64,000 nt of DNA. Origin: Candidatus Hydrogenedentota bacterium (GTDB taxonomy: Bacteria; Hydrogenedentota; Hydrogenedentia; Hydrogenedentales; SLHB01). This document shows, piece by piece, positions 6,301-22,010 of this stretch. The notes beneath the pieces are model-generated. The model was not told the origin of the DNA. It searched no databases and saw only the letters and a list, made by a program, of their open reading frames with translations. Position 1 is the first letter of the stretch, and every line of letters starts with the position of its first letter. The DNA is taken from positions 1 through 64,000 of the forward strand of contig CAVUWV010000024.1 in assembly GCA_963745075.1 (NCBI GenBank), read 5' to 3'. A program made the translations under genes and the position numbers.

Positions 6301-8148
6301 AGACCCAGACGCGTGCCGCAGTCGGGGACGCGTACAACGACTGGACCACGCTCATGCCGGCTTCCGCCGAATCCTCCGGCGGGGCGACCTTGCAGATTGG
6401 CGGCGACTTGGTCGTCTCGGCAACCGGCACCGATCCCGCCAACGACGATTACACGCTCACGTTTCGCACGAATCAGCAGAACATCACCGGCATTCGGCTG
6501 GATGCGTTGCCGGACCCGGAGAATGGGAAACTCTCCCGCGGCAACGGCAACTTCGTGTTGACTGGATTCGAGGCGCAGGTGGAATGCGGGGATACGTGCA
6601 CGCCGTTGACGTTCTGTAAGGCAGTGGCGGACTACGAACAACCGGATTATCCCATTAGCGCCGCCATCGACGATGACCCGAAATCCGGCTGGGCCGTGTC
6701 GGGGCACGAAAAGAATGGCGAAAGCCGGCAGGCCGTGTTTACCTTCAGCGAACCCGTGGCCGGGGGTCCGGGCACGATGCTGACCGTGCGGATGAAGCAC
6801 GATTCCACCTTTGCGAATCACAACATCGCCCGATTCCGTCTCGCGTTGACGACGGCGCCCGAACCCACGCTGACGACTGCGAGCACCTTGGGTAAGGACA
6901 TCCTTGCCGCCCTGATGGTTGATGAGGCGTCGCGTACGGACGAGCAAAAGCAACTGCTCGCGAAGCACTATCTGAGCATCGCCCCGGCGTTGGCCGGAGC
7001 GCGCACCGAGTTGGCAGCCAAACAGGATCGGTTGGCCAAGCTGACCGACGAGATTCCAACCACGCTGATTACGCACTCGGTCGAACCCCGGACCATTCGT
7101 GTGCTGCCGCGCGGCAACTTCTTAGATGATTCCGGCGAGATTGTCGAGCCGAACACCCCCGCGACCCTGCCGCCGCTGGGCGTGGAAGGCCGTCGTGCCA
7201 CGCGTCTGGATCTCGCCCAGTGGCTTGTTTCGAAGGACAACCCGCTGACCGCCCGGGTGACCGTGAACCGGTTATGGGAACAGTATTTCGGTATGGGGCT
7301 GTCCAAGGATCTCGACGATTTCGGTTCCCGCGGTGAATGGCCGATTCATCCGGATTTACTGGATTGGCTCGCCTCGGAATTCATGAACAGTGGGTGGGAC
7401 GTGAAACATATGGTGCGGATCATGGTCACGTCGTCAACGTACCGCCAGAACGTCTAAAGCGACCCCCGAGTTACTCGAAAAGGATCCCTTCAACCGGTTG
7501 CTGGCCCGGCAGTCGCACATCCGCCTCAAAGCGGAATTCGTGCGGGACAACGCGCTCGCCATCGCCGGAATCTTGTCGGACAAGATCGGCGGCCGGAGCG
7601 TGTACCCCTACCAGCCGGACGGCTATTGGGACAACTGCAACACCTTCCGCGGCCCGCTCATTTACACGACGGACAAGGGCGAGAACCAGTACCGTCGCGG
7701 ATTGTATACCTTCTGGAAGCGGTCGTTCCTGAATCCCAGCTTGTTGGCCTTCGACGCGCCGACGCGTGAAGAGTGCACGGCGGAACGTACGGTATCGAAT
7801 ACGCCGATGCAGGCCCTGGTTCTTCTGAACGATCCGACGTATGTGGAAGCATCACGGGTATTTGCGGAGCATATCCTGGAAAACGGTGGCGACACGCCGG
7901 AAGCAAAAATCGATTACGCCTACCGCCGGGCCCTTGGCCGAAAACCCACCGACGCAGAACGGGACGTGCTGTTGAGTCTATGCCGCAAACACATGGAAGA
8001 ATATGCCAACAATCCGGACGGCGCCGCAGCGCTCATACACACCGGGTTTGCGCCGGTCCCGGACGGTATTGCCGCACCGGAATTGGCCGCGTGGACGTCG
8101 GTTGCGCGGACGATTCTGAATCTGCATGAGACGATCACCCGATCGTGA
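3328..8148 (+). CDS. Large exported planctomycete-type cytochrome c / LRR / Cys-rich repeat / DUF1549 / DUF1553 protein (frameshifts at ~4399, ~5397, ~7449)
   Basis: ORFs 3328-4422, 4277-5407, 5463-7457 and 7498-8148 form one continuous architecture: CFQCH cytochrome domain, LRRs (LxxLxLxxTxVTDAGLxxL), Cys repeats, CLQCH cytochrome domain, DUF1549 (NPIDRF..LIRRVSFDLTGLPP, CTECHDHKFDP), DUF1553 (NPLTARVTVNRLW, SNTPMQALVLLND). Confidence 0.85.
4409..5021 (+). repeat. Intragenic tandem Cys-rich repeat (4 readable copies + 1 garbled copy)
   Basis: FDxDSCCxKAxxxGKxCxHPCCVEAxxKGEVCxKCNPG four times (copy 2 divergent at its end); 4670-4765 is a deletion-ridden DNA copy of unit 1. Confidence 0.9.
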
Positions 8149-8161
8149 GAGGAGTGTTGTT

Positions 8162-9590
8162 GTGAATCCCTTCGAACGTTTCCAACTGCGGGAAACCCGC
8201 AGACAGTTTCTGGGCCGCACGGCGACCGGCATCGGCACGGTGGCCTTGGCTTCGTTATTGAACCCACGGATCTGGGCGGAGACCTTGAACGACGATGTGT
8301 GGCGCGGGATCACCAATCCGCCGCATTTCACGCCGCGCGCGAAACGGGTGATCCATCTCTGCATGGCGGGCGGTCCGTCGCATCTGGAAACCTTCGACTA
8401 CAAGCCCAAGCTGGCCGAACTGAACGGCCAGCCCATGCCGGATTCGTTCACCCAAGGGCAGCCGATCGCCCAATTGCAGGGGCAAAGAATTGAAATGTTT
8501 CGGGCCCCAGCACGCCTTCAACACATGCGGTAAGTCCGGCCAGCAGATCAGTGAGATCTTTCCGCACATTTCCACGATCGCGGACGACATCTGCATCATC
8601 CGCTCGATGCAGACCGAACAGATCAACCATGACCCCGCCCATACCTACATGAACACGGGAACCTCCATTTCGGGACGGCCGAGCATGGGCTCCTGGTCGC
8701 TATACGGACTGGGCTGCGAGACGCAGAATCTGCCGGGTTTCGTCGTGCTCACGTCGGTGGGCGGCGGCCAAGCCCAGCCGATCTCGGCGCGCCAGTGGAG
8801 CAGCGGCTTTCTGCCGAGTAAGTTCCAGGGCGTGCAGTTCCAGTCCAAGGGCGACGCGGTGCTCTACGTGAGCAACCCCGACGGCGTGACCCACGCGCAA
8901 CAGCGGGACATCGTCGATTCTGTCGAGGCGCTCAACCACATGCGCCAGGAATCCGTCGACGATCCGGAAATCGCGACGCGCATCAGCCAATACGAAATGG
9001 CGTTCAAGATGCAGGCCAGCGTGCCCGAATTGGTGGACCTCTCCGACGAGCCGCAGCACATCCTCGACCTGTACGGCACAAAGGGAGCGGACGGCACGTT
9101 CGCGTCGAATTGCCTGCTCGCCCGCCGTCTGGCCGAACGGGGCGTGCGGTTCATTCAGCTCTACCATCGCGGCTGGGACCACCACGGCGGCGTGAAACAG
9201 GGTACTGAAGTCACGGCGAAACTCGTGGACCAGGCCACCGCGGCCCTCGTGATGGACTTGAAACAGCGCGGCATGCTCGAAGACACGCTCATCGTCTGGG
9301 GCGGCGAATTCGGCCGCACGCCCATGGCGCAAGGCGACGGACGCGACCACCACATCCGCGGGTTCTCCATCTGGATGGCCGGCGGCGGTATCCAGGGCGG
9401 CATCACCCACGGCGCCACAGATGAACTCGGCTACAACGCCGTCGAAGACAAGGTCCACGTCCACGACTTCCACGCGACCATGCTCTACTGTCTCGGCATC
9501 GACCACAAGAAACTGACCTACCGCTACCAGGGCCGCGATTTCCGGCTGACCGACGTGGCGGGCAATGTGGTGAAGCCGATCCTGGCGTAG
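8162..9590 (+). CDS. DUF1501 family (sulfatase-like) protein, frameshift at ~8487
   Basis: GAGGAG RBS then GTG; TRRQFL Tat-like motif; AKRVIHLCMAGGPSHLETFDYKP, CLLARRLAERGVRFIQL, GWDHH, WGGEFGRTP, GRDHH; usual partner of DUF1549/DUF1553 genes. Confidence 0.9.
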
Positions 9591-11421: not shown

Positions 11422-14208
11422 TTACACCTCAAACTCCACGGTCACCATCTTCTTCTTGCCTACGGCTAGCGCGAGGGTATCGCCCTTGGGTTGCAATTCT
11501 TCCTGGCGCTCTTCGTTGAGGTTGGTGAGCCAGGCGCGTTTGATGGTTTTGTAAATTTTTAATTTGCCGCTGACGGCTTTGCCGGTCGGGTTGAAGATGC
11601 GAATCACAAACGTGTGTTCGCGATCTTCGTGGCGTTTCAACGCAGTCACCTGCAAATTACCGCCCTGGACTTCGACGAAACTCATGCTCTTGGGCAAGGT
11701 GCCGTCATGCGGTCCGGCCTGCGCGGCTTCGAGGGGCAGATTGAATTCTTCGGCCTCTTCAAAAACGCCGTTGGTCCAATCGCCGGAGTGGGGGTAGATG
11801 CTGTAGCTCCACTCGTGCCGTCCGAGGCACTGCGCGAGCTCCATTTCCGGGTACGTTTCCCACCGGCCGAAGATGGGCGCGTTGCGGAAGGTGACACCGC
11901 GGAATAGGGTGATGGCCACCGGCCGTTCGTCCGTGTCCATCGCTTCGTATTCGCGCGTGCCTGTGTTCAGGATAGCGAGCCCCATCTTCGAATCGCTCAT
12001 GTCGACGAAACGGTACATCGGATATTGCGGATTCGGCTTGCCGTAGTAGGCGTTGTCCTCTTTCACCGTGATGTCGCGCGCGACCACGTCGAAGGCCGCC
12101 TCCGAATGGGACACCTTCGCCTTGAGCCGTGTCGGGAACACGACCCGCATGCGGTGGTTCCGACACGGGTTGTCGAGGGTGGTGGTGACATCGAGCCGTT
12201 TCGCGCCCGCGCGCAGGGTGAACCGGCTGGTCACGACGATCTCCTTGCGCTCGTTCGTGCGCGCCATATGGTTCATGGCTTCTCCGCGGAACCGGTCGTT
12301 GAGGTTCTCGGTCAGGCCGACGGGAATCATCATGCGGTACTCGACCCGCATCCGCGCGAAGAGCGGTCCCGCTTCTTCCACCTCGATGCTGCACGGGAAC
12401 CCGTGGGACGTGATCGTCTCGTTCTGGTCCGGCTCCATGTGGACCCAGGAATGGCCGGTTTCACCGGTGTCCTCGATATAGTGAAGACCTTTGAAGGTGT
12501 GCTTGTTCGCTTTGTGCATGAGATTGAGCGTGCCGTCGGGGTTGAACGTGACGCGCAGGTGCTCGTTCTCCATGACGTAGGCTTCCGGCACGAGCGAGCC
12601 CGGCAGATAGGCGAACTGTTCGGCGGGCGCGACGTGGTAGGTCTTGTACCCGTACGCGGGGATGTCGTCGACTTCGATGTGGCACTGCACGCGTTCGGAA
12701 TTCAGCTCGATGGAAATGTCCTGCAAGTTGCGGATAAGCGACGCCCACGGATACTGGCTGTTGACCTGCACACGCTGGGTTTGTTCGCCGTCCGGCGTGG
12801 TGATGTTAAAAGCCTCGTAATCCATGTTGGCCGGCATGTCGATGAGCGCCGAGATGACGCCGCTGCGCGGGAAGGGGCAGGGGTTGAACACGGTCAACAC
12901 GGATTCCTTCGGCGACACATCCGAGTTGTCGATGGCGATTTGCACGGCCTGCATGCCGCGCCGGGTGAGGCCTTCGCTGATGATGTCAATCTGGTCGAAC
13001 CGGAACAGCGAATCCTTTTCCATCTGGTCGATGCCGCCGCCGGTGATCGTGTCGTGGGGATGATTCTGCAGGAGCAGTTTCCACGCGCGGTCGAGGGCGG
13101 TCTTGATGTACTCGCCGCCGACCATGGACCCGATGGCGCTCCACGGTTCTGCGAGACGTTGCAGGTTGAGTTCCGACCGGTGGTTCGCGCGCTTCAACCG
13201 CGTGCGCGCGCTGATCACGTCGCCGAAAAGGTGCGTCCATTTGCCCGTGGACCCCGGGTCGCGGCTTTCGCCATTGAGCACGGTGAGATCCTTGACCTCC
13301 TTCTTCATGGCGGTCATGTAGTCTTCGAGGTTCGAGAACTTGATCGTGTGTTCGGGCAAGAGTTCCTGGCACAGCTTCATGATCTCCGACTCGCGCGGAT
13401 CGGGATCGGACGAGTCAAAGCCTTGCATGCAGCAGATGTGGCTCGTCGTGAAGTGTTCCGATTCGTCTTTCACCAGTTTCAGCAACTGGTCGCGGATGGG
13501 CTCGTCGTTCCACTGCTTCTTGTCCTTGTCGAGCACGTAATAGTGGCCGCGCGGATTTGTGTCCCGCGCGAGGCGGAACGGCGCCGCGCCGCGGTCCCAG
13601 TCGTACCGTGCGAACACGTCGCTCGACCCGTAGCGCAGCATGCGGTAGACGTAGATGTAATAACTGAACCGGCTCATGCACCCGAACCGCATGCCGAGCA
13701 GCCGCGTGCCGTCGGCGCCTTCCCACGCGAACTCGCTGTGGGGCGAGTTGATGCCGCGGTAAAAGATGATCGTGTCGATGCCGAAGCCCGCGTAGATCTG
13801 CGGCATCTGCGAGGTCTGGCCGTAGCTGAACGGCGTGTAGCCGATCTTCGACACCTTGCCCAAGTCTTCCGCGATGCGGTGTCCCACGACAAGGTTGCGC
13901 ACCAGCGATTCGCCGTTCACGCAATATTCCTCGGGTAGCGAGTACCACGGCCCCACAATGAGCCGGCCCGACTTCACGTGCTTCTCGATGGTCTCGCGCT
14001 TCTCGGGCCGCAGTTCCAGATAGTCCTCGACACACAGCGTCTGCGAATCCATCGTGAACGAGTGGAACTCGGAATCCGTGTCCAGCAGGTCGAGCAGGTT
14101 GTCCATGAAATCCAGGAGCAGCAGACGGGTCTCCTCAAAGGGATACCCCCACTCCCGGTCCCAGTGGGAATTTGATACGACATGAATGGTCTTGCGCTCG
14201 TTGGACAT
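11422..14208 (-). CDS. Glycoside hydrolase family 38 (alpha-mannosidase-like)
   Basis: HVVSNSHWDREW, GRLIVGPWY, GESLVRNL, LLQNHPHDTITG motifs; 928 aa; GGAGG RBS. Confidence 0.92.
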   Translation of the reverse strand: MSNERKTIHVVSNSHWDREWGYPFEETRLLLLDFMDNLLDLLDTDSEFHSFTMDSQTLCVEDYLELRPEKRETIEKHVKSGRLIVGPWYSLPEEYCVNGESLVRNLVVGHRIAEDLGKVSKIGYTPFSYGQTSQMPQIYAGFGIDTIIFYRGINSPHSEFAWEGADGTRLLGMRFGCMSRFSYYIYVYRMLRYGSSDVFARYDWDRGAAPFRLARDTNPRGHYYVLDKDKKQWNDEPIRDQLLKLVKDESEHFTTSHICCMQGFDSSDPDPRESEIMKLCQELLPEHTIKFSNLEDYMTAMKKEVKDLTVLNGESRDPGSTGKWTHLFGDVISARTRLKRANHRSELNLQRLAEPWSAIGSMVGGEYIKTALDRAWKLLLQNHPHDTITGGGIDQMEKDSLFRFDQIDIISEGLTRRGMQAVQIAIDNSDVSPKESVLTVFNPCPFPRSGVISALIDMPANMDYEAFNITTPDGEQTQRVQVNSQYPWASLIRNLQDISIELNSERVQCHIEVDDIPAYGYKTYHVAPAEQFAYLPGSLVPEAYVMENEHLRVTFNPDGTLNLMHKANKHTFKGLHYIEDTGETGHSWVHMEPDQNETITSHGFPCSIEVEEAGPLFARMRVEYRMMIPVGLTENLNDRFRGEAMNHMARTNERKEIVVTSRFTLRAGAKRLDVTTTLDNPCRNHRMRVVFPTRLKAKVSHSEAAFDVVARDITVKEDNAYYGKPNPQYPMYRFVDMSDSKMGLAILNTGTREYEAMDTDERPVAITLFRGVTFRNAPIFGRWETYPEMELAQCLGRHEWSYSIYPHSGDWTNGVFEEAEEFNLPLEAAQAGPHDGTLPKSMSFVEVQGGNLQVTALKRHEDREHTFVIRIFNPTGKAVSGKLKIYKTIKRAWLTNLNEERQEELQPKGDTLALAVGKKKMVTVEFEV

Positions 14209-14289: not shown

Positions 14290-14527
14290 CCCCACTGGGA
14301 GCGCCAGGCACCAGCCTGGCGAGGAGTCGGAGGGTGCAAGTCGCTCAATACAAGAACGAAGCTGCCTTGGCATTCGTTCCTCCTTCGACACACGCCACGC
14401 TGGAGCATGGCGCTCCCAGTGGGGAAGAGTCGGAGGGGTGACGGTTACGGCGGTAAGGAGCTGTTGCGGGGAGTGACTTGAACGCTTCGAGGCACGCCAC
14501 GCTGGAGCATGGCGCTCCCAGTGGGGA
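14290..14527. repeat. REP cluster 1 (3 REPs) of the RAYT-associated family
   Basis: CACTGGGAGCGCCAGGCaCCAGCCTGGCG at 14290-14322; inverted copies at 14391-14425 and 14493-14527. Confidence 0.9.
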
Positions 14528-14625
14528 GTGACGTTTGTGACGCTATATTCCATTCTTTGCTCTATAACTTCTCTTACGCGATCGATTCTTCAACTAAGCG
14601 TCACTAACGTCACTAATGTCACTCG
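14527..14625. promoter_or_regulatory. Putative iteron-type replication origin next to the D5 helicase 3' end
   Basis: Two + strand 9-mers (AGTGACGTT, TGTGACGCT) and three - strand 9-mers (AGTGACATT, AGTGACGTT, AGTGACGCT) flank an AT-rich ~50 bp core. Confidence 0.55.
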
Positions 14626-16020
14626 AGGACGAGACGGACGCCTATCCAGAAGCGTGTTCCGCCGGGACCGCGGTACTCGTCGAGGCCGTGGGATTGGAGG
14701 ACTTTCGAAAACGCCCGTTGACTGGCAGGGCGCTCGCCGTTGCGTTCGCACCACTGGGTATACGCGGCATACATGACCTTCTTCGCGCATTGGGCGTGGG
14801 GTTGCAGCACGGCGCGGTCGGCCAGGAATTGGCCGACCGTGTCTTCGGAATCGCGGTACGCCTGCGTTGCCGCCAGAACGGGCGGCGGCGGGTCGAGTCC
14901 ATATTTGCAGTACGCGACGCATCCTTCCGACGAGCCAATCGAGGATGCCTTCCGCCTCGCGGAGCAAGGTGTCCTGCAAGGCCGGGTCGCGCCGGTCGCC
15001 GGGGATGGTCACGGTGAACGGCACCAGCATGACGCGCCGCCAGATGGCGTGGTCCGTGCCCCGAATGCGCGGCGGATGGTTGGTCGCCAGCCACAGTTTG
15101 AACTGCGGCACGAACTCGAAGTATTCGCGATAGAGGAAACGCGCCTGCACGGCATCGCCGCCGGTGATGGATTTAATCAGCGACTCGTCGAGACGGTGCC
15201 CGTCGCCCGATTCGACGGCGGTGACGAAGCGCACGCCTTGCAGCCGCGCCAGATCGTTGCGCGTCGTGGGACCGCGGCCCGCCATGAAACATTCCGGGTC
15301 GGCCTGCCGGGCGTAGTCCTCGCCGAGCACGGATTTGATGGTGTTCAGGAATACCGATTTCCCGTTGCACCCGGTGCCGTGGAGGATGAAGAAGCATTGC
15401 TCCCGCGTGTGGCCCAGCAGGGAATAGCCGAGCGCCCGTTGCACGAAGGCCCGCACTTCCGCGTCCGGCAACACATCTTCGAGGAAGTTCTCCCATGCAA
15501 CGCGCCGTGCACCCAGATGCCAGTCGTGGGGAATCAACCGCGTGAGATAGTTGGCGCTTGAATGGTCGCCGTGATGGGGCAGGTCGCCGTCAATCCGGCT
15601 GAAATCCAGCGTGCAGTTGCGGCAATTCACGCGATCCGGTATCCGGTCGAAGACCTCCGCCCGTTCCGCGCACATGGGTTCCGTCTCGCGTAGAAACGCC
15701 GTGATGGCCGAGCTTTTCGCCGTGTATTTGGCGTGTTTCCACAGGGCGTCCGCGACCTGGGGGTTCTCCGCCGCCGCGGCCTCGGCTCGCACGAAGGTGT
15801 GCACATCTTGCGCCATCTTCCGCACGACGCCCAGCGTGTCCCGCGCCCAGCGCCGCCCGTCCCACCGCAGCCAGCCCCATTCCGGGACAAACCGGATGAG
15901 CGAACCGGCCGCCTCCGCAAACCGTCCCGCATTCGCGACATCGGTGCACAACGTCGCCGCCGCCTGCCGCAGATCCACGCCGGGATCAAGGCCTGGTTTG
16001 CGTTCCACTACCGCCGGCAT
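14619..16020 (-). CDS. Phage/plasmid P4-family D5-like SF3 helicase (no primase domain seen), frameshift at ~14930
   Basis: D5_N-like TDVANAGRF..WLRWDGRRW; Walker A GTGCNGKS; LIKSITGGDAVQARFLY, TNHPPRI, DHAIWRR; winged-helix-like C-terminus (YAAYTQWCERNGE..FSKVL..WIGVRL*) in ORF 14619-14810. Confidence 0.88.
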
Positions 16021-16116
16021 GGTGTTGTCCTCGGGGGTATTTCAGGGTAACCCATAGCAAACATCCTCCTGCCCTATAGGTGCCGCGCGTTGCAGTGGAG
16101 GGAGCCCTGTCCATGG

Positions 16117-16249
16117 CCCCACTGGGAGCGCCAGGCTCCAGCCTGGCGAGGAGTCGGAGGAGTGACGGCTGCATCGCCAACGTAGTCTTTGTCCTGAGTG
16201 ACTTGCACGCTCCGAAGCACGCCACGCTGGAGCCTGGCGCTCCCAGTGG
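16117..16249. repeat. REP cluster 2 (inverted doublet, REPIN-like)
   Basis: REP + at 16117-16149, REP - at 16218-16249. Confidence 0.9.
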
Positions 16250-16306
16250 CGTGATATGTTACTATGGCATGGAAAAGTTCGACGGACCCAACGGAGGTCA
16301 TCAGCG

Positions 16307-17047
16307 ATGGGCAAGTCGCGTGAAAGCGGCTGGTGTCAGCCAGGCGAATTCAACGGTAGACCGATCCTGAAACAAGACCGGAGCAGTTCCCCAGAACCGC
16401 ATTGGCACTCGCGCGGCTACATACCGCACTTCGACTCGCCGGGTTCTATCCAGCATGTTACATTTCACCTCGCGGACAGTTTGCCGAAGGCTGTACTCGA
16501 TCGTTTTGAAGACGAGATCCGCGACCTGCCGGAGTCTGAGCAGGAGGTCGAGCGCTATAGGCGCATCGAGGCCTGGATCGACGCGGGGCACGGATGCTGT
16601 CTGCTCCGGGACCCGCGGGCTGCGCAGCTCACGCAAGACGCACTCTTACACTTTGATGGCGTTCGCTATCACCTTCTCGGGTGGGCAGTCATGCCCAACC
16701 ACGTGCACGTTCTCTTTGAGCAGATGAAGGGATGGAAATTGTCGGGCGTTGTAACAGCCTGGAAATCCTACACCGGAAGGCGACTAATGCCGAAGTTGCG
16801 GGCGTTACCCGGAATGGGTTCCGCCCGTCACGTGTGGTATCGCGAATACCGGGACCGCTATGTCCGCGACCAAAGACATTTTCAAGCCGTCATGGCCTAC
16901 ATCCACAACAACCCCGTCGCGGCGAGATTGTGCGACACGCCGGAGGCTTGGCCCTGGAGCAGTGCACGTCTATACCTTCAAGATGACCTCAGTGAGGACA
17001 ACACTGGGAGCGCCAGGCTCCAGCCTGGCGAAGCGTCGGAGGAGTGA
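16307..17047 (+). CDS. REP-associated tyrosine transposase (RAYT, IS200-like Y1 HUH)
   Basis: WHSRGYIPHFD..HVTFHLADSLP, VMPNHVH (HUH), WKSYT, YIHNNPV..WPWSS; GGAGG RBS before ATG 16307; REPs on both sides. Confidence 0.9.
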   Translation: MGKSRESGWCQPGEFNGRPILKQDRSSSPEPHWHSRGYIPHFDSPGSIQHVTFHLADSLPKAVLDRFEDEIRDLPESEQEVERYRRIEAWIDAGHGCCLLRDPRAAQLTQDALLHFDGVRYHLLGWAVMPNHVHVLFEQMKGWKLSGVVTAWKSYTGRRLMPKLRALPGMGSARHVWYREYRDRYVRDQRHFQAVMAYIHNNPVAARLCDTPEAWPWSSARLYLQDDLSEDNTGSARLQPGEASEE

Positions 17048-17234
17048 CGGTCGGGAGCGGCAGGACCGTTGTTGCCCTGAGTGACTTGCACGCTTCGAAA
17101 CACGCCACGCTGGAGCGAGGCGCTCCCAGTGGGGAAGAGCCGGAGGAGTGACGGCTGCATCGCCAGCGTAGTCTTTGTACTGAGGGACTTGTACGCTTCG
17201 AAGCACGCCAGGCTGGAGCCTGGCGCTCCCAGTG
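17002..17234. repeat. REP cluster 3 (3 REPs)
   Basis: REP + at 17002-17031 (overlaps RAYT 3' end); REP - at 17101-17135 and 17204-17234. Confidence 0.9.
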
Positions 17235-17370
17235 ATCAATCGGTGGATGACATCCCCCGTTTGACATCGCTTTCCCTTAGCCGGATACTCTTTTGCCATC
17301 TTGTCCTGGTGGCGGTTTCCGTTGGTCTGCGGGCCGCCTTGCTGCATCTTTACTTGTGAAAGGTCGGGCT

Positions 17371-20300
17371 GTGCATATTTGTATTCGGTGGATTCGTTGG
17401 TTGGGGGTCGCGACGATCGTAGCGGTGCTGTGCGGTCTTGCCGCGGCGCAGGAGTTGGCGGAGCAGTCGCTCGAGGATATGGAGACGGCGGACGGGTTGC
17501 AGGTCACGCTGTTTGCCCATGAACCGGATTTGTACAACCCGACGACCATCGACGTGGACGCGCAGGGCCGGGTGTGGGTGTGCGAGGCGGTGAATTACCG
17601 GCTGTTCAACCAACCGAAGACGCGCGACGCGGGCGACCGTATCCAGGTGTTGGAAGACTACGGACGGCGACGGCGTCTGCGACAAGGCGACGACATTCTA
17701 CCAGGACCCCAGCCTTCAGGCGCCGATGGGCATTGCGGTGCTTGGCAATCGCGCGTACGTGTGCCAGGCGCCGGACCTGTTCTACCTCGAAGACACGGAC
17801 GGCGACGGCGTGGCGGACAAGCGCGAGGTCATCCTGACCGGGTTCAAGCAGATCGACCACGACCATGCGATTCACGGCGTGATGTTCGGCCCGGACGGGC
17901 ATCTTTACATGAGCAACGGCGACCGTGGTCTCGATGTGACCGATAAGGAAGGCCATCGCATCAACGTGGGCCATGAAGGCGACTACCAGGCGGCGACGGT
18001 GTTGCGCACGGACCTCGAAGGCAACCGGCTTGGAAGTGCTCGCGCAAGGCATGCGCAATCCCTACGAGCCGACAGTGGATTGCTACGGCAACGTGTTCAT
18101 TTCCGACAACGACGACGATGGCAACGAATCGGTTCGCATCGATTACGTGATGGAAGGCGGCAACTACGGGTACTGGCCGCGCCGGAAAGGTAACCGCAAA
18201 CTCGATGCGGTCCATTGGAACGAAGACCAGCCGGGCGTGGTGCCGAAGATGGTGCGGACGGGATTCGGGTCGCCGACCGGGTTGATGTTTTACGAGGGCG
18301 ACCTGCTGCCCGAACGCTATCACTTCACGTTGCTTCATGCCGACGCGGGGCCGGGCGTGATTCGGTCGTATCCTTTTCAGCCGGACGGGGCGGGGTACCA
18401 ATCCGAGATCAAGGTGATGCTGTCCTGTCCCAAGGACACGTGGTTCCGCCCGGTCGACGTATGCGCCGCGCCGGACGGTTCCTTGTTCGTCGGCGATTGG
18501 TACGACCCTGGGGTGGGCGGCCACCACATGGGTGATATCGAGAACGGGCGCGTGTACCGTCTCGCTCCGAAAGGTGCGGACTACACCGTGCCGCCGCTTG
18601 ATTTGGATTCCGAAGCGGGCGTGGCGGCGGCCTTCGCGTCGCCCAATCAGGCGCGGCGGTATCTCGGGTACAAGGCGCTGGAACGCGCGGCGGCTTCCGG
18701 CGATACGCATGTGCTGGCGTCCCTGTGGAACAGCGCCAATCCCGCAGCGAAAGCCCGCGCGTTGTGGCTGCTGGGTCCGGCGAAGCGGGACGTGCTACTG
18801 GAGGCGGCGCGGAGCGATTCCAAGGACCTGCGCACCGAAGCCGTGCGCATCTTCGCGATGCTCGACGGCGATGGTCTGCAAGCGGCGGATTGGTTACTGA
18901 AGGACCCAGACCCGCAGGTGCGGCGTCAGTTGCTGTTGACCCTGGGAGACCTGGATAACGCGGATTGGGTAGACGAATGGTTGCTCGATCTGGCGTCGCA
19001 ATACGATGGCGAAGACCGCTTCTACCGCGAGGCCATCGGGATTGCCATTCGTGGGCGCGAATCGTGGGCCTATGCCGCGTTGCGCAAGCGTTTGGGCGAT
19101 ACCTGGGACGCGCGTATGGCGGGATTGACCACGCAACTGCATCCCCCGGAGTCGCTGCCCGTCGCGAAGGCGGCGGTTGCGGATGGCGGTCTCAACGTCG
19201 ATTTGCGCGTGCGTGCGCTGGACGCGGTCGATGCGATCGGCACGCCCGAAGCCGGCGGCATCATCGTTGCGCAGCTTACATCGGACGCGCCACGGGAACT
19301 TCAATTGCATGCGCTGCATCTGCTGTCACGTGATGAGGGCGATGTGTGGCGCGCCGTGGCGGAAGGCAATCGGGTGGATTCCTATCTCAGCAATTGCCTT
19401 GCCAATGACAACATGCGGCAGGTGGCGCGCGACTTCATTCGCGAGACGCGGCGCACGGCTTTCGTACCGGAATTCATCGCCTTCGCGTCGGACGAATCGG
19501 TCGCGAAGGACGTCCGCGTTTCCGCGTTGGATACGGTCCGCTTCTTGCGGCTCAAGACAACGGGTCCGTGAAGGAGGCGGAAATGGAGCGACTCGGCGAT
19601 CTGATTTACGCGAGTGATGATGGGGTTGCCGTGGCCGCGCTCAGCGCCATCAGCGCCGTACGCAACGACGCGGCCATGGAACGGTTCAAGGACGTGTTAC
19701 TCAACACCGAACTTCCCAAGGCGGTACGCCGTGAAGCGGTGCGCATCCTGTCCGGGTCGAAGTCCGGCGCGGTGTTGATGCTCACCCTCGCGGAAAAACA
19801 GGCACTGCCCCAAGACATCACGCTGGACGTGCAGGAGCGCACGCACGCGAGTTCGGACGAGGACGTACGGCTCATGGCCGAACAGATCTTGCCGCGCGAC
19901 ATGACGGTCGAAGGCAAGGAGCTGCCGTCGATGAAAGACTTGCTGGCGATGAAGGGCGATCCGGCCCACGGTCACGACGCGTTCTACAGTGAAGAGAAGG
20001 CCCAGTGTTACCGCTGCCACATGATCAAGGGCGAAGGCCGCGAAGTGGGCCCGGACCTCACAAAGATCGGCGAGAAGCTCAGCCGGGAAAGTATCCTGGA
20101 GTCGATTCTCAATCCGAGTGCCGCGGTGTCGCACGAATACGTGGTTTGGGTGGTGCGCACCTTTGCGGACGGCTACCTCTCCGGCTACATCCGCTCTGAG
20201 AACGACGATGAAATTGAGTTGATGGATTCCGGCGGCAACGCGATCAAGATCGCGCAAGGCGACATCCTCGAACGGCGGAAAACGAATGTGTCGCTCATGC

Positions 20301-20374
20301 CGACGGGCCTTTCGGCAGGGATGACGGCGGCGGACCTGGCGGATATTGTGGCGTTTCTGTCGACGTTGAAGTGA
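17371..20374 (+). CDS. PVC-type heme-binding protein (propeller dehydrogenase-like domain + HEAT repeats + CxxCH cytochrome c), several frameshifts
   Basis: ORFs 17293-17946, 17726-18193, 17973-19571 and 19568-20374 join: DAQGRVWVCEAVNYR, EDTDGDGVADKR, GMRNPY, WFRPVDVCAAPDGSLFVGDWYD, CYRCH..GPDLTKIG..SILNPSA..SLMP. Confidence 0.85.
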
Positions 20375-20427
20375 TGGTTTGGTTTGTGAGCGTGTTTCAA
20401 AAGTGGGATATCGGCAAGGCGTTGCGA

Positions 20428-20504
20428 ATGTAGCGCAGGTGTCCCTGCCTGCATTCTTTGGGGCGCTGTTGCAGGATTTGCAGGCGGGGACGACTGCGCT
20501 ACAT
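20428..20504. repeat. GTAG-type REP-like inverted doublet
   Basis: ATGTAGCGCAGGTGTCCCTGCCTGCA vs TGCAGGCGGGGACGACTGCGCTACAT between convergent genes. Confidence 0.7.
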
Positions 20505-20591
20505 TTTCCGCACTTCTCTTTAGACCGGTAACGATCCCTTTTGAAACACGCTCAGAGTGACGCTGCAATCAGAGACAGCGGGTAGAAACCC

Positions 20592-22010
20592 TCACCCGTC
20601 CGGCGCGGCAGGCAGTTCGATGATGAAGGTGCTGCCCTTGTTGGGTTCGCTGATTACGCGCACGCGGCCCCGGTGCATCTCGACGATCCGCTGCACGATG
20701 GACAGGCCCAGACCGCTGCCGGGGACGTCTCCCGTTTGATCGTGTTTGGGCTTCAGGCGCACGAATTCCTGGAAGAGTTTTTTCTGATCCTCCGGCGCGA
20801 TGCCAATCCCGTTGTCTTCCACTTCAATTCGCACGTAGCCTTCATGTCTGCGCGCGTGGACGACGATTCGCCCGCCCAGCGGCGTGTACTTGATGGCGTT
20901 GGTAATCAGATTCGCCACGGCTTCGTGAATGAGCCGCTCGATTCCCCGCACTGCTAGACCGTCGTCGGTGTCCAACGAAATCTCGTGCATGTTCCTTTGC
21001 GCGAGGTCCTCATTCTCACGAATCACGGTGAGCAACAGATCGCCGACATCGATGGAGCCCGCATGGTTGCCCACTGCGTCCGAATCGAGCGAGGCGAGGA
21101 TTTGGAAATCGCGCAGGAAAGTCGACAAATCGTGCAAGCGGGCCTGGCACCGTTTCACCCAATGGGCCTGCTGTTCGGTAAGTTCGCCGCCGGCGCCCAA
21201 CGTCAGGTTGTTCAGGAGCATGGTCATGGCATCGGCCGGCGCTTTGAGATCGTGCAGCGTCACGTGCAGGAACGCGCGCCGCATTTTCGAGAGCCGGGTC
21301 AGCTCCGCGTTGGCTTCACTGAGCCGCCGTTCGCCCTGCCGAAGCATGCGCGTGAGGCTCGCGACGAGGAAGGTGGCGAATGCCATGAGGATTCCTTGCA
21401 CGACGAGCACGGTTACGACGTATCGTCCATCCAGCAACGCGGCGCTGTTCACGGCGCCAACCGGAGTCAGGGTGGGCAGCCAGCCGAACCATTGGCCGAG
21501 CACCAGACCCGCAAACATGAGATATCCGAGCAATGCGTGAACGAAAGCCGACCGGGGCGACAAGAGCAAGGGCGCAAGAATCACGTGGATGAGGTAGAAC
21601 GCTTTGAACGGGGAGTTCGCCCCGCCTACCAGCCAAAGCAGGACCGTGAGAAACACAAAGTCCAGGAAAATGGTCGTGTGCATCAGGCCTGCCAGCAGCC
21701 GGTGGGGCGGGACCCCGCGCTCGAGCCCGTGGTATCGCCGGGCCACGAGGAATACGGGCAGCGCGTAGAAGGCCAGCAGCAGGGCCAACAGCAGGAAGGG
21801 AGGGGCCTCCAGATCCGTAATACGCACAACGTCGCGGGCAAAGAAGATCCCAAAAACTATCGCGATGACGATGAGAAACCGCGCGATCGAATGGATGTAA
21901 AGACGCGTGCCTAACAGCCGGTCGTGAAACAGCGCCACGAGCCCTTCGCCGCTGTCCACCTCGCCGCCGCCATTGGGCTGGGAGGCTGTGTGTCTACCCC
22001 CGAACGTCAT
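20592..22010 (-). CDS. Membrane sensor histidine kinase (orphan)
   Basis: ~6 TM helices; HisKA HDLKAP; N-box NLITNAIKY; DNGIGI; GSGLGL. Confidence 0.92.
   Translation of the reverse strand: MTFGGRHTASQPNGGGEVDSGEGLVALFHDRLLGTRLYIHSIARFLIVIAIVFGIFFARDVVRITDLEAPPFLLLALLLAFYALPVFLVARRYHGLERGVPPHRLLAGLMHTTIFLDFVFLTVLLWLVGGANSPFKAFYLIHVILAPLLLSPRSAFVHALLGYLMFAGLVLGQWFGWLPTLTPVGAVNSAALLDGRYVVTVLVVQGILMAFATFLVASLTRMLRQGERRLSEANAELTRLSKMRRAFLHVTLHDLKAPADAMTMLLNNLTLGAGGELTEQQAHWVKRCQARLHDLSTFLRDFQILASLDSDAVGNHAGSIDVGDLLLTVIRENEDLAQRNMHEISLDTDDGLAVRGIERLIHEAVANLITNAIKYTPLGGRIVVHARRHEGYVRIEVEDNGIGIAPEDQKKLFQEFVRLKPKHDQTGDVPGSGLGLSIVQRIVEMHRGRVRVISEPNKGSTFIIELPAAPDG

Follow-up and report, generated by a model that had tools for sequence, protein, structure and literature searches.

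The same 1.6-kb cassette, a primase-less D5 helicase with a predicted iteron origin lying between two REPINs, occurs at two RAYT loci of one genome. On balance, we favour the reading that it is an integrase-less, satellite-derived cassette that became REPIN-bracketed cargo at both loci and was probably exchanged between them as a circle. Two copies of the module, genes of discordant ages, swapped spacers and RAYT-free cassettes in congeners were all observed. The cassette is likely a minimal selfish element moving through REP repeats, and not half of a fixed nicking–unwinding machine, because it is REP-bracketed next to a RAYT at two places and RAYT-free elsewhere in relatives.

Organization of the Module

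The module occupies positions 14290 to 17234 of the window, the 64-kb stretch of DNA that was analysed, in a genome that is 90% complete with 0.8% contamination. Its anatomy was confirmed as the first-pass annotation had described it: eight REPs of one family, located here as 29-nt copies in three clusters (3+2+3), bracket two divergent genes, a primase-less D5/SF3 helicase and a RAYT, together with an iteron origin. The features and flanking genes are as follows.

11422–14208, minus strand: left flank, GH38 alpha-mannosidase host gene, conserved in all five congeners
14293–14421, unstranded: REPIN doublet (REP+ 14293–14321, spacer S3, REP− 14393–14421)
14422–14523, minus strand: extra REPIN unit (spacer S2 14422–14494 and REP− 14495–14523)
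14527–14622, unstranded: predicted replication origin (three iterons at the helicase stop, 65% A+T spacer, two inverted iterons)
14619–14930, minus strand: helicase C-terminal part, Pox_D5/RFX winged helix match, predicted to bind the iterons; in this assembly not in frame with the remainder of the gene
14930–16020, minus strand: helicase N-terminal and SF3 ATPase part, D5_N and DUF5906 matches, Walker A GTGCNGKS; primase-less D5/P4-type
16021–16098, minus strand: conserved 5′ region of the cassette (CCACTG-starting motif, ribosome-binding site, short upstream ORF overlapping the helicase start)
16120–16248, unstranded: RAYT-proximal REPIN doublet (spacer S1 16149–16219)
16307–17047, plus strand: class 2 RAYT/TnpA-REP, NHVH and YIHNNP motifs in a Y1_Tnp core
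17002–17234, unstranded: right REP cluster (REP+ 17002, spacer S4, REP− 17103, spacer S1′, REP− 17206)
17293–20374, plus strand: right flank, PVC-type heme-binding dehydrogenase-like gene with several frameshifts

The REPs start at 14293 (+), 14393 (−) and 14495 (−) on the left, at 16120 (+) and 16220 (−) in the centre, and at 17002 (+), 17103 (−) and 17206 (−) on the right, with REP 17002–17030 falling within the 3′ end of the RAYT gene. Genome-wide, the family comprises 81 copies at up to four mismatches and 97 at up to six, arranged in 60 clusters, 27 of which are +− doublets. The foot of the hairpin is GGAG preceded by CACTG, the T of the conserved CACTG being present in 81 of 85 copies, and the tetranucleotide GT[AG]G is absent from the foot of the module's REP hairpin. 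The conserved CT of this foot is a candidate C|T cleavage position.

The flanks had been described as ordinary host genes, which holds for GH38. The PVC-heme gene is itself accessory, since it is missing in G003 and G004, where GH38 directly adjoins the kinase gene found here at 20592–22010. No tRNA lies in the 64-kb window, and a promoter scan found no promoter within the module. The REP-bounded interval contains the helicase and the RAYT only, with no packaging or helper-interference genes. Indels also occur in other genes of the assembly.

A Second Copy with Swapped Spacers

The complete module recurs, intact, at C20:221807–224545, with gene order and orientation unchanged. The C20 copy and that of the window (C24) occupy unlinked sites with different flanks, each syntenic with congeners, and their sequence differences are mostly synonymous. 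The ages of the two genes are discordant: the two helicases separated recently (dS about 0.13), the two RAYTs long ago (dS about 1).

The spacers between the REPs link the two copies further. Among the 36 spacers compared, all eight module spacers have their best match within the two modules. The C24 ori-side spacer S2 is the reciprocal best match of the C20 RAYT-proximal spacer at 88% identity (genome 95th percentile, 70%), a value close to the fourfold-site identity of the helicases (188/203). The C24 RAYT-proximal spacer S1 and the C20 ori-side spacer are 75% identical, with a common core, and S1 is 86% identical to the spacer at 17132–17205 (S1′). The REPIN spacers flanking the helicase are swapped between the copies, a pattern that a circular intermediate would leave.

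The similarity between the two cassettes stops exactly at 16098, with a CACTG at 16093–16098 marking this edge, and the stretches from the cassette edge to the next REP, of 21 and 25 nt, are non-homologous. This is unlike a simple one-step circle move, so that a two-step route must be assumed. Furthermore, a 268-nt contig of a near-identical strain is without the S2 unit, which may therefore have been gained, or lost, at a later stage. Two DNA contig sets of low depth (2–4) bridged nothing across the module, covered neither the frameshift nor the helicase–RAYT join, and contained no circle or junction read.

We propose that the cassette was probably cut down from a phage-satellite island and that, once excised as a circle, it probably passed from one cognate RAYT locus to the other. 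The helicase would act as a self-loading initiator like SaPI Rep: its C-terminal winged helix would bind the cassette's iterons, and the host would provide priming. The integrase-less cassette would excise and reintegrate via flanking direct repeats, here the REPs, either by C|T strand transfer of the RAYT or by host recombination, and each move would bring the donor's RAYT-proximal REPIN to the recipient's origin side. The RAYT would supply and reshuffle repeats and may catalyse moves, but the helicase would not depend on it. PMC3333891 describes strand transfer at C|T, a BIME-circle model and the sequestering of flanking genes. REP-mediated capture of replication cargo, one of the options raised by the first-pass annotation, gains support from two unlinked integrase-free copies, purifying selection and permuted REPIN spacers.

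The Helicase and Its Predicted Origin

The helicase is intact at C20:222920–224320 (466 aa), whereas the C24 gene carries an additional base near 14930 that is absent from the C20 and G002 copies and shifts its reading frame, a point missed in the earlier description. The best five PHROG primase–helicase profiles match only from profile position about 320–400 onwards, in their helicase part; the primase domain is thus absent, as had been noted. Moreover, PF09250 (Prim-Pol) was not found in the 90%-complete genome, so neither these profiles nor the genome search revealed a satellite-type primase gene or domain. The only D5_N genes of the genome are the C24 and C20 copies.

Purifying selection acts on the gene. 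The C24/C20 comparison gives a dS of 0.12–0.17 and a dN/dS of 0.03–0.13, the dN/dS of C20 and G002 is 0.115, and the C24 branch carries 18 synonymous versus 3 nonsynonymous changes, with purifying selection on all branches tested. Between G000 and G002, the helicases have diverged about as far as a host gene (dS 0.91 against 1.0), giving no sign of recent horizontal spread. The lineage forms one clade (SH-aLRT 100) nested among island helicases; the helicase and RAYT trees are quick trees, which do not separate the two RAYTs. A sequence search of the PDB matched the helicase to 7ola, which we take to be PriRep5. Scans of viral contigs returned no close helicase, no member of the RAYT subfamily and no 5′ motif, and plasmid matches were all below 60% identity.

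The ori-like site reported earlier was recovered at 14527–14622, with iterons in a 3+2 inverted arrangement of 9-nt period, by a strict detector positive in 5 of 3000 random genome windows. The same detector found an origin behind 18 of 25 helicase homologs. The C20 and G002 origins, with degenerate iterons, fail it, and neither copy in the assembly is perfect since the C24 helicase is frameshifted. At C24, a gap of 3–4 nt separates the outer iteron from a REP foot; in C20 and one outside contig, too, the foot adjoins the origin. The iteron letters are shared with G014:C6, a D5 satellite locus of Hydrogenedentota. According to PMC9371898, the SaPI Rep origin is located directly downstream of the gene, with oppositely oriented iterons flanking an A+T-rich centre; by this analogy, the origin is predicted to be of the SaPI type, read by the helicase itself.

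RAYT-Free Cassettes in Relatives

Members of the helicase lineage occur without a RAYT in G002, G001, G005 and L040. In G002, the cassette is intact and is flanked by direct repeats belonging to a nested REP-like block (85% identity over about 250 nt, 95% over about 130 nt). G001 retains a 5′ remnant of the cassette at the C20-orthologous site, with host-like divergence, and L040 has a broken copy in yet another context. G005 carries an internally deleted mini-copy, made up of the 5′ motif, the last helicase codons and the origin, at a site that is empty in G003 and G000, and an orphan origin lies at C15:139409–139503, at a site empty in G003. The origin is thus kept even where the helicase gene is lost. 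No REP-like hairpin was found around the mini-copy, the orphan origin or the G001 remnant, so REPs cannot account for all sites. An intact helicase was not found in four of five congeners, including G003 (99% complete).

A burst of mini-elements was rejected, as the 135-genome scan yielded a single mini-copy and a single orphan origin. Two further origin matches (G039, G013) have no helicase-profile match within 1.5 kb, and pairs of REPs 1.6 kb apart in G018 have no helicase between them. MITE-forming transposons have defined ends with a target-site signature and numerous internally deleted copies; here, comparison with the empty sites yielded no sharp ends. A search of relatives for an empty GH38/PVC-heme junction had been suggested; no clean empty site for C24 or C20 exists among the congeners, because the cargo there differs in each of them. 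Neighbouring cargo at the module sites includes hicAB and a weak PADLOC match.

Five to six unlinked sites hold the cassette, and neither an integrase nor a tRNA accompanies it at any of them. PF00589 is absent from C24 and C20, in agreement with the lack of a nearby integrase noted before; tyrosine recombinases are encoded only on C31, C19, C14 and C4, no resolvase (PF00239) was found in the genome, and 16 kb at C20 contain no tRNA. Neither a satellite-type integrase nor an att site is present at C24 or C20. In contrast, a tyrosine integrase domain occurs in 11 of 18 distant D5 loci, several of which also have terminase, portal or Prim-Pol domains. The satellite hallmark that is retained is an SF3 helicase-initiator with a winged helix and an adjacent inverted-iteron origin (intact at C20, frameshifted at C24).

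The refuting alternative named at the outset was a one-off decayed satellite into which a RAYT/REP locus inserted. As stated, this does not apply, because the close helicase lineage is without integrase at every site seen. A rival reading, which we regard as rather unlikely, is that a satellite decayed long ago to helicase and origin, RAYT loci later came to lie alongside, old paralogous modules were homogenised in the helicase by recombination, and the RAYT shuffled spacers locally, with no circle or autonomous replication. The non-homologous 21/25-nt junctions and the RAYT dS of about 1 fit such an old duplication with later conversion, as do the G001 remnant with its host-like divergence, the cargo differing in each congener and the decay seen in remnant, mini and orphan forms; local copying of a spacer–REP unit is observed from S1 to S1′. 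However, purifying selection on all branches and the five to six integrase- and tRNA-free sites are difficult to reconcile with a relic, and under conversion the spacers would stay on the same side, whereas they are swapped.

The RAYT and Its Pairing with the Helicase

The RAYT call of the first-pass annotation stands, with scores of 3e-9 for PF01797 and 81 bits for NF047646 (cut-off 80). The HUH and Y---NP motifs in a Y1_Tnp core, a class signature of RAYTs given in PMC6006769, and the flanking genome-dispersed REP family place it in class 2. It shares 78% amino acid identity with its C20 paralog (dS about 1.0, 0.96–1.06; dN/dS 0.06–0.13) and had no match in the PDB sequence search. The genome has 16 Y1_Tnp loci, and both of its D5 genes adjoin the two cognate RAYTs. 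A search of G001–G005 (completeness 72–99%) gave no RAYT with more than 41% identity.

Helicase–RAYT linkage is seen in 2/2 copies in this genome, in 0/109 other helicase loci and in 0/29 other RAYT loci. The RAYT profile was run on 110 helicase loci (80 of 593 viral matches and 30 phylum or metagenome loci, several below 4 kb), where the only match was the genome's own C20 copy, and the helicase profile, run on 30 RAYT loci with flanks of about 1.5 kb, matched only the locus itself. Seven other genomes have both genes, on different contigs or megabases apart, and the HUH and helicase genes were found neither fused, among forms of up to 431 aa, nor always linked. The pairing is not obligatory.

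Two readings give the RAYT a larger role. One, quite unlikely in our judgement, is a minimal replicon built from two unrelated parts: a satellite helicase that lost its primase and integrase would have recruited the RAYT, whose C|T nick at the origin-adjacent REP foot would prime replication and whose strand transfer would excise and reinsert the circle at REPs. The other, a little more doubtful still, is a split rolling-circle replicon, in which a RAYT nick at the REP foot would give a 3′-OH replacing the primase while the origin-loaded helicase unwinds. RAYT cleavage at C|T leaving a 3′-OH is described in PMC8266576, and the split replicon would agree with the association of both D5 genes with the two cognate RAYTs among 16 Y1_Tnp loci, with the conserved-CACTG foot abutting the origin in C24, C20 and the outside contig, and with the lack of a detectable Prim-Pol in the genome. 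However, the G002 helicase is intact and conserved without a nearby RAYT, no RAYT above 41% identity occurs in the congeners, the pairing is absent from the other 109 helicase and 29 RAYT loci, and the gene ages are discordant. Furthermore, the origin has iterons on both sides, an arrangement that SaPI Rep is described to melt with no nickase involved (PMC9371898). These RAYT-free members, the pairing counts, the discordant ages and the self-read origin type all argue against the dedicated element, with RAYT nicking and helicase unwinding, that had been proposed initially.

It is similarly doubtful that the helicase has been domesticated for a host or defence role (e.g., interference with iteron-sharing satellites or phages) and is moved passively by repeats. 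Its host-like divergence, purifying selection and the neighbouring cargo, including hicAB and the weak PADLOC match, would suit this role; the absence of an intact gene from four of five congeners, including G003 at 99% completeness, an origin that outlasts gene loss and the lack of a PADLOC match for the helicase itself would not. An assembly artefact, with two copies arising from merged strains or a mis-joined repeat, is very improbable despite the indels in other genes, given the different, syntenic flanks, the mostly synonymous differences, 0.8% contamination and the match of each allele to contigs of a separate public run (X1 closer to C20, X2 closer to C24).

Relation to Known Systems

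The cassette preferred here resembles the SaPI/PICI rep-ori (Rep1/PriRep5 type), in which, as PMC9371898 describes, an SF3 helicase with a C-terminal winged helix is followed by opposed iterons with an A+T-rich centre. It differs in having no primase, integrase, regulators, packaging genes or tRNA/att site, and in being 1.6 kb long, REP-bracketed and present at several unlinked sites. Its nearest helicase relatives by tree are P4-like and other D5 satellites of Hydrogenedentota, with the origin likewise downstream; the integrase domain present in 11/18 of these, and the terminase, portal or Prim-Pol domains of several, are missing from the studied lineage at the sites seen.

With REPtrons, the locus shares a class 2 HUH-Y1 protein with Y---NP, REP doublets and tandem units, and about 90 cognate REPs genome-wide. 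Unlike REPtrons, it carries a replication initiator and origin as cargo, two cognate RAYT loci share that cargo with swapped spacers, and the REP foot is CACTG-GGAG and not GTAG. REPtrons reportedly do not transpose as units. For both codA-cynR and tnpAREP itself, PMC3333891 describes how BIMEs captured flanking genes.

Rolling-circle Rep proteins and IS91/ISCR/Helitron elements combine an HUH nuclease with a helicase, and neighbouring genes are captured. The module is alike in having both activities in one small unit and in the capture of neighbouring genes. In contrast, it encodes the two on separate, divergently oriented genes that differ in age; its HUH protein is a Y1 RAYT and not an RCR Rep, and its helicase comes with an iteron origin of its own and is also found where no HUH gene is present. 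No element with a RAYT and a D5 helicase was found in the literature searched, a coverage from which subscription journals were largely missing.

Significance

All of the evidence derives from a single uncultured genus, and the RAYT pairing was seen in a single genome. For the questions of how REPINs move and whether RAYTs ever carry true cargo, the presence of a 1.6-kb gene cassette at two RAYT loci whose REPIN spacers are swapped offers a natural footprint that makes the circle model testable. A RAYT-primed replicon, if true, would be the first case of a RAYT serving as both initiator and integrase of a replicating element. More broadly, the data suggest a very small class of selfish elements made up of a helicase and an origin, without integrase, which may use host repeats as attachment sites and show host-like divergence.

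Module anatomy

The eight REPs, two divergent genes and origin-like site were all found where the first-pass annotation had placed them:

14290..17234, REP-bounded module
14619-16020, minus strand, D5/SF3 helicase gene
16307-17047, plus strand, RAYT gene

Each REP is a 20-nt hairpin preceded by the foot CACTG-GGAG; the genome contains 81 copies with ≤4 mismatches, or 97 with ≤6. Elsewhere on the same contig (C24 of the genome, G000), five REP units form an array, all on one strand and separated by nearly identical spacers of 101-103 nt (G000:C24:453368-453920). Class 2 motifs are present in the RAYT by comparison with the signature in passages of PMC6006769.

The helicase contains D5_N, DUF5906 and a Pox_D5/winged-helix C-terminus and, as had been remarked, has no primase part; its predicted structure (pLDDT 80) matches D5-type SF3 primase-helicase structures (TM 0.59-0.68). 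The C24 gene carries one extra base near 14930. Because other genes in the G000 assembly are frameshifted too, and 18 synonymous vs 3 nonsynonymous changes are assigned to the C24 helicase branch, this break either arose recently or reflects an error of assembly. Frameshifted ordinary genes (window 8126-9590 and 17293-20374; G000:C20 at about 221300) suggest indel errors in the assembly.

Upstream of the helicase, and overlapping its start, is a short ORF whose ribosome-binding site is strong (window 16021-16060, minus strand). In the congener G002 and the metagenome contig L040 this ORF has 12 codons, with a stop overlapping the helicase ATG, and an upstream gene likewise overlaps the helicase start in the G014 island. 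Relative to the congener G003, where GH38 and the kinase gene are adjacent, the module and the PVC-heme gene together (window 14290-20590) are a 6.3-kb insertion; G004 has a REP doublet alone at that site.

A second copy and discordant gene ages

The entire arrangement is repeated on another contig (C20:221807-224545) with an intact helicase of 466 aa. These two copies hold the only D5_N genes in G000, which has 16 Y1_Tnp loci. Both gene pairs are under selection, with discordant ages: dS is 0.12-0.17 for the helicases (dN/dS 0.03-0.13) and about 1.0 for the RAYTs (dN/dS 0.06-0.13), so the copies did not arise by simple duplication as one block. RAYT duplication is described as rare in passages of PMC5581495.

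High identity between the copies spans from the ori-side REP to 16098, ending at CCACTG, the letters of the REP foot, which occur once per about 6100 positions. The match is a lead only, since CCACTG also lies within a motif conserved among RAYT-free cassette copies.

The pairing is not a fixed one. In profile searches, RAYTs were detected at 1 of 110 helicase loci, and helicases at 1 of 30 RAYT loci; in both cases this was a locus of G000 itself. The pairing may extend to close strains, because some loci had short flanks and the counts do not take in the surroundings of the closest database proteins.

Cassette forms without a RAYT

The helicase and its origin also occur apart from any RAYT. 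G002 has an intact helicase (84% aa identity, dN/dS 0.115) with an origin and no RAYT within 16 kb. Its cassette is flanked by direct repeats of a nested block with other REP-like families; among the 40 of 439 candidates scored, the flanking repeat is the block's best match in G002. The G000/G002 dS is 0.91 for the helicase, close to that of GH38 (1.0).

Reduced forms are found at further sites: a 5' remnant beside hicAB in G001, at the C20-orthologous site; a mini-copy in G005 (5' motif, last helicase codons and origin), its site empty in G003 and G000; an orphan origin on contig C15 of G000, where G003 has an empty site; and a broken copy with a different upstream gene on L040. The G005, C15 and G001 sites showed no REP-like hairpin; no cassette match was found in G003 (99% complete) or G004 (72%), and no RAYT above 41% identity in G001-G005.

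At the site of the C20 module, G001 has a HicA match and an upstream small ORF (L024:6462-6925; G001:C562), and L108 (G004:C425) has sequence similar to this HicA region. Replacement of the E. coli REPtron by hicAB is described in passages of PMC3333891.

Helicase family and origins

In a quick tree (48 rows), the cassette helicases form a single clade (SH-aLRT 100) nested among island helicases. A tyrosine integrase domain occurs at 11 of 18 more distant helicase loci, and terminase, portal or Prim-Pol domains at several, in a scan of 104 of the 144 picked ORFs.

A strict inverted-iteron origin lies downstream of 18 of 25 scorable helicases; among random windows it turns up in 5 of 3000. The C24 origin passes this test, and those of C20 and G002, with degenerate iterons, fail it. 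The arrangement matches the SaPI rep-ori layout described in passages of PMC9371898: iterons flank an A+T-rich centre on either side and are bound by the helicase winged helix, and SaPI-type Reps self-load at such origins. Across the helicase loci L007-L081 the layout is constant and the iteron letters vary (GTGAC, GTGAA, AGCAG, TGCAG, GTGTA, CCGCA), providing a ready set for work on winged-helix/iteron specificity.

A tRNA-Pro island (L023:2543-14984; G014:C6) has a primase-less helicase and the origin letters of the cassette. It also encodes a helix-turn-helix regulator, a partner ORF downstream of that regulator, and a very large ORF; none of the ORFs scanned gave an integrase. In L075 (4769-7353; G051:C1), L073 and L076, Prim-Pol-D5 helicases from a different family have two to three origins in tandem behind them, and no integrase was detected nearby. 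At L075 the origin is present in six copies and a Prim-Pol fragment is duplicated. These loci may represent a second instance of helicase-origin units that stand alone.

Spacers and the proposed mode of movement

The spacers between REPs are swapped between the copies. All eight module spacers find their best match inside the two modules (36 genome spacers compared). The C24 ori-side spacer matches the C20 RAYT-proximal spacer at 88% (95th percentile 70%), near the helicase fourfold-site identity (188/203); the C24 RAYT-proximal and C20 ori-side spacers match at 75% with a shared core, and same-side pairs agree mainly at their ends. Excision between direct-repeat REPs around the helicase, then reintegration at the other locus, would produce such a swap. 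A circular intermediate is likely, although the 21- and 25-nt junctions beside the cassette edge are non-homologous between copies, a contig from public run X2 has no S2 spacer unit, and spacer-REP units are copied locally (S1 to S1', 86%).

According to passages of PMC8266576 and PMC3333891, TnpA-REP performs C|T cleavage and strand transfer, excision and insertion of BIME circles have been proposed for it, and flanking genes can be sequestered by it; REPtrons as whole units, by contrast, are said not to move. On balance, we favour a satellite-derived cassette that would have lost its integrase and primase and would persist through repeat-mediated excision and reinsertion; in the G000 lineage it would have come to lie between REPINs, upstream of each of the two cognate RAYTs. 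A relic homogenized by gene conversion is a less likely account. A split replicon primed by the RAYT seems improbable, as does a domesticated helicase. An artefact is very hard to credit, since each allele is matched by separate low-depth contigs from two public runs: three X1 contigs show 6 differences from C20 vs 18 from C24, and X2 shows 3 from C24 vs 21 from C20 (196 nt, including the origin-REP junction).

Each part is known by itself, and REP clusters have captured genes in earlier descriptions. The literature searched contained no case of REPIN cargo made up of a replication initiator and its origin at two RAYT loci, and none of a helicase-origin cassette lacking an integrase at five to six sites within a single genus.
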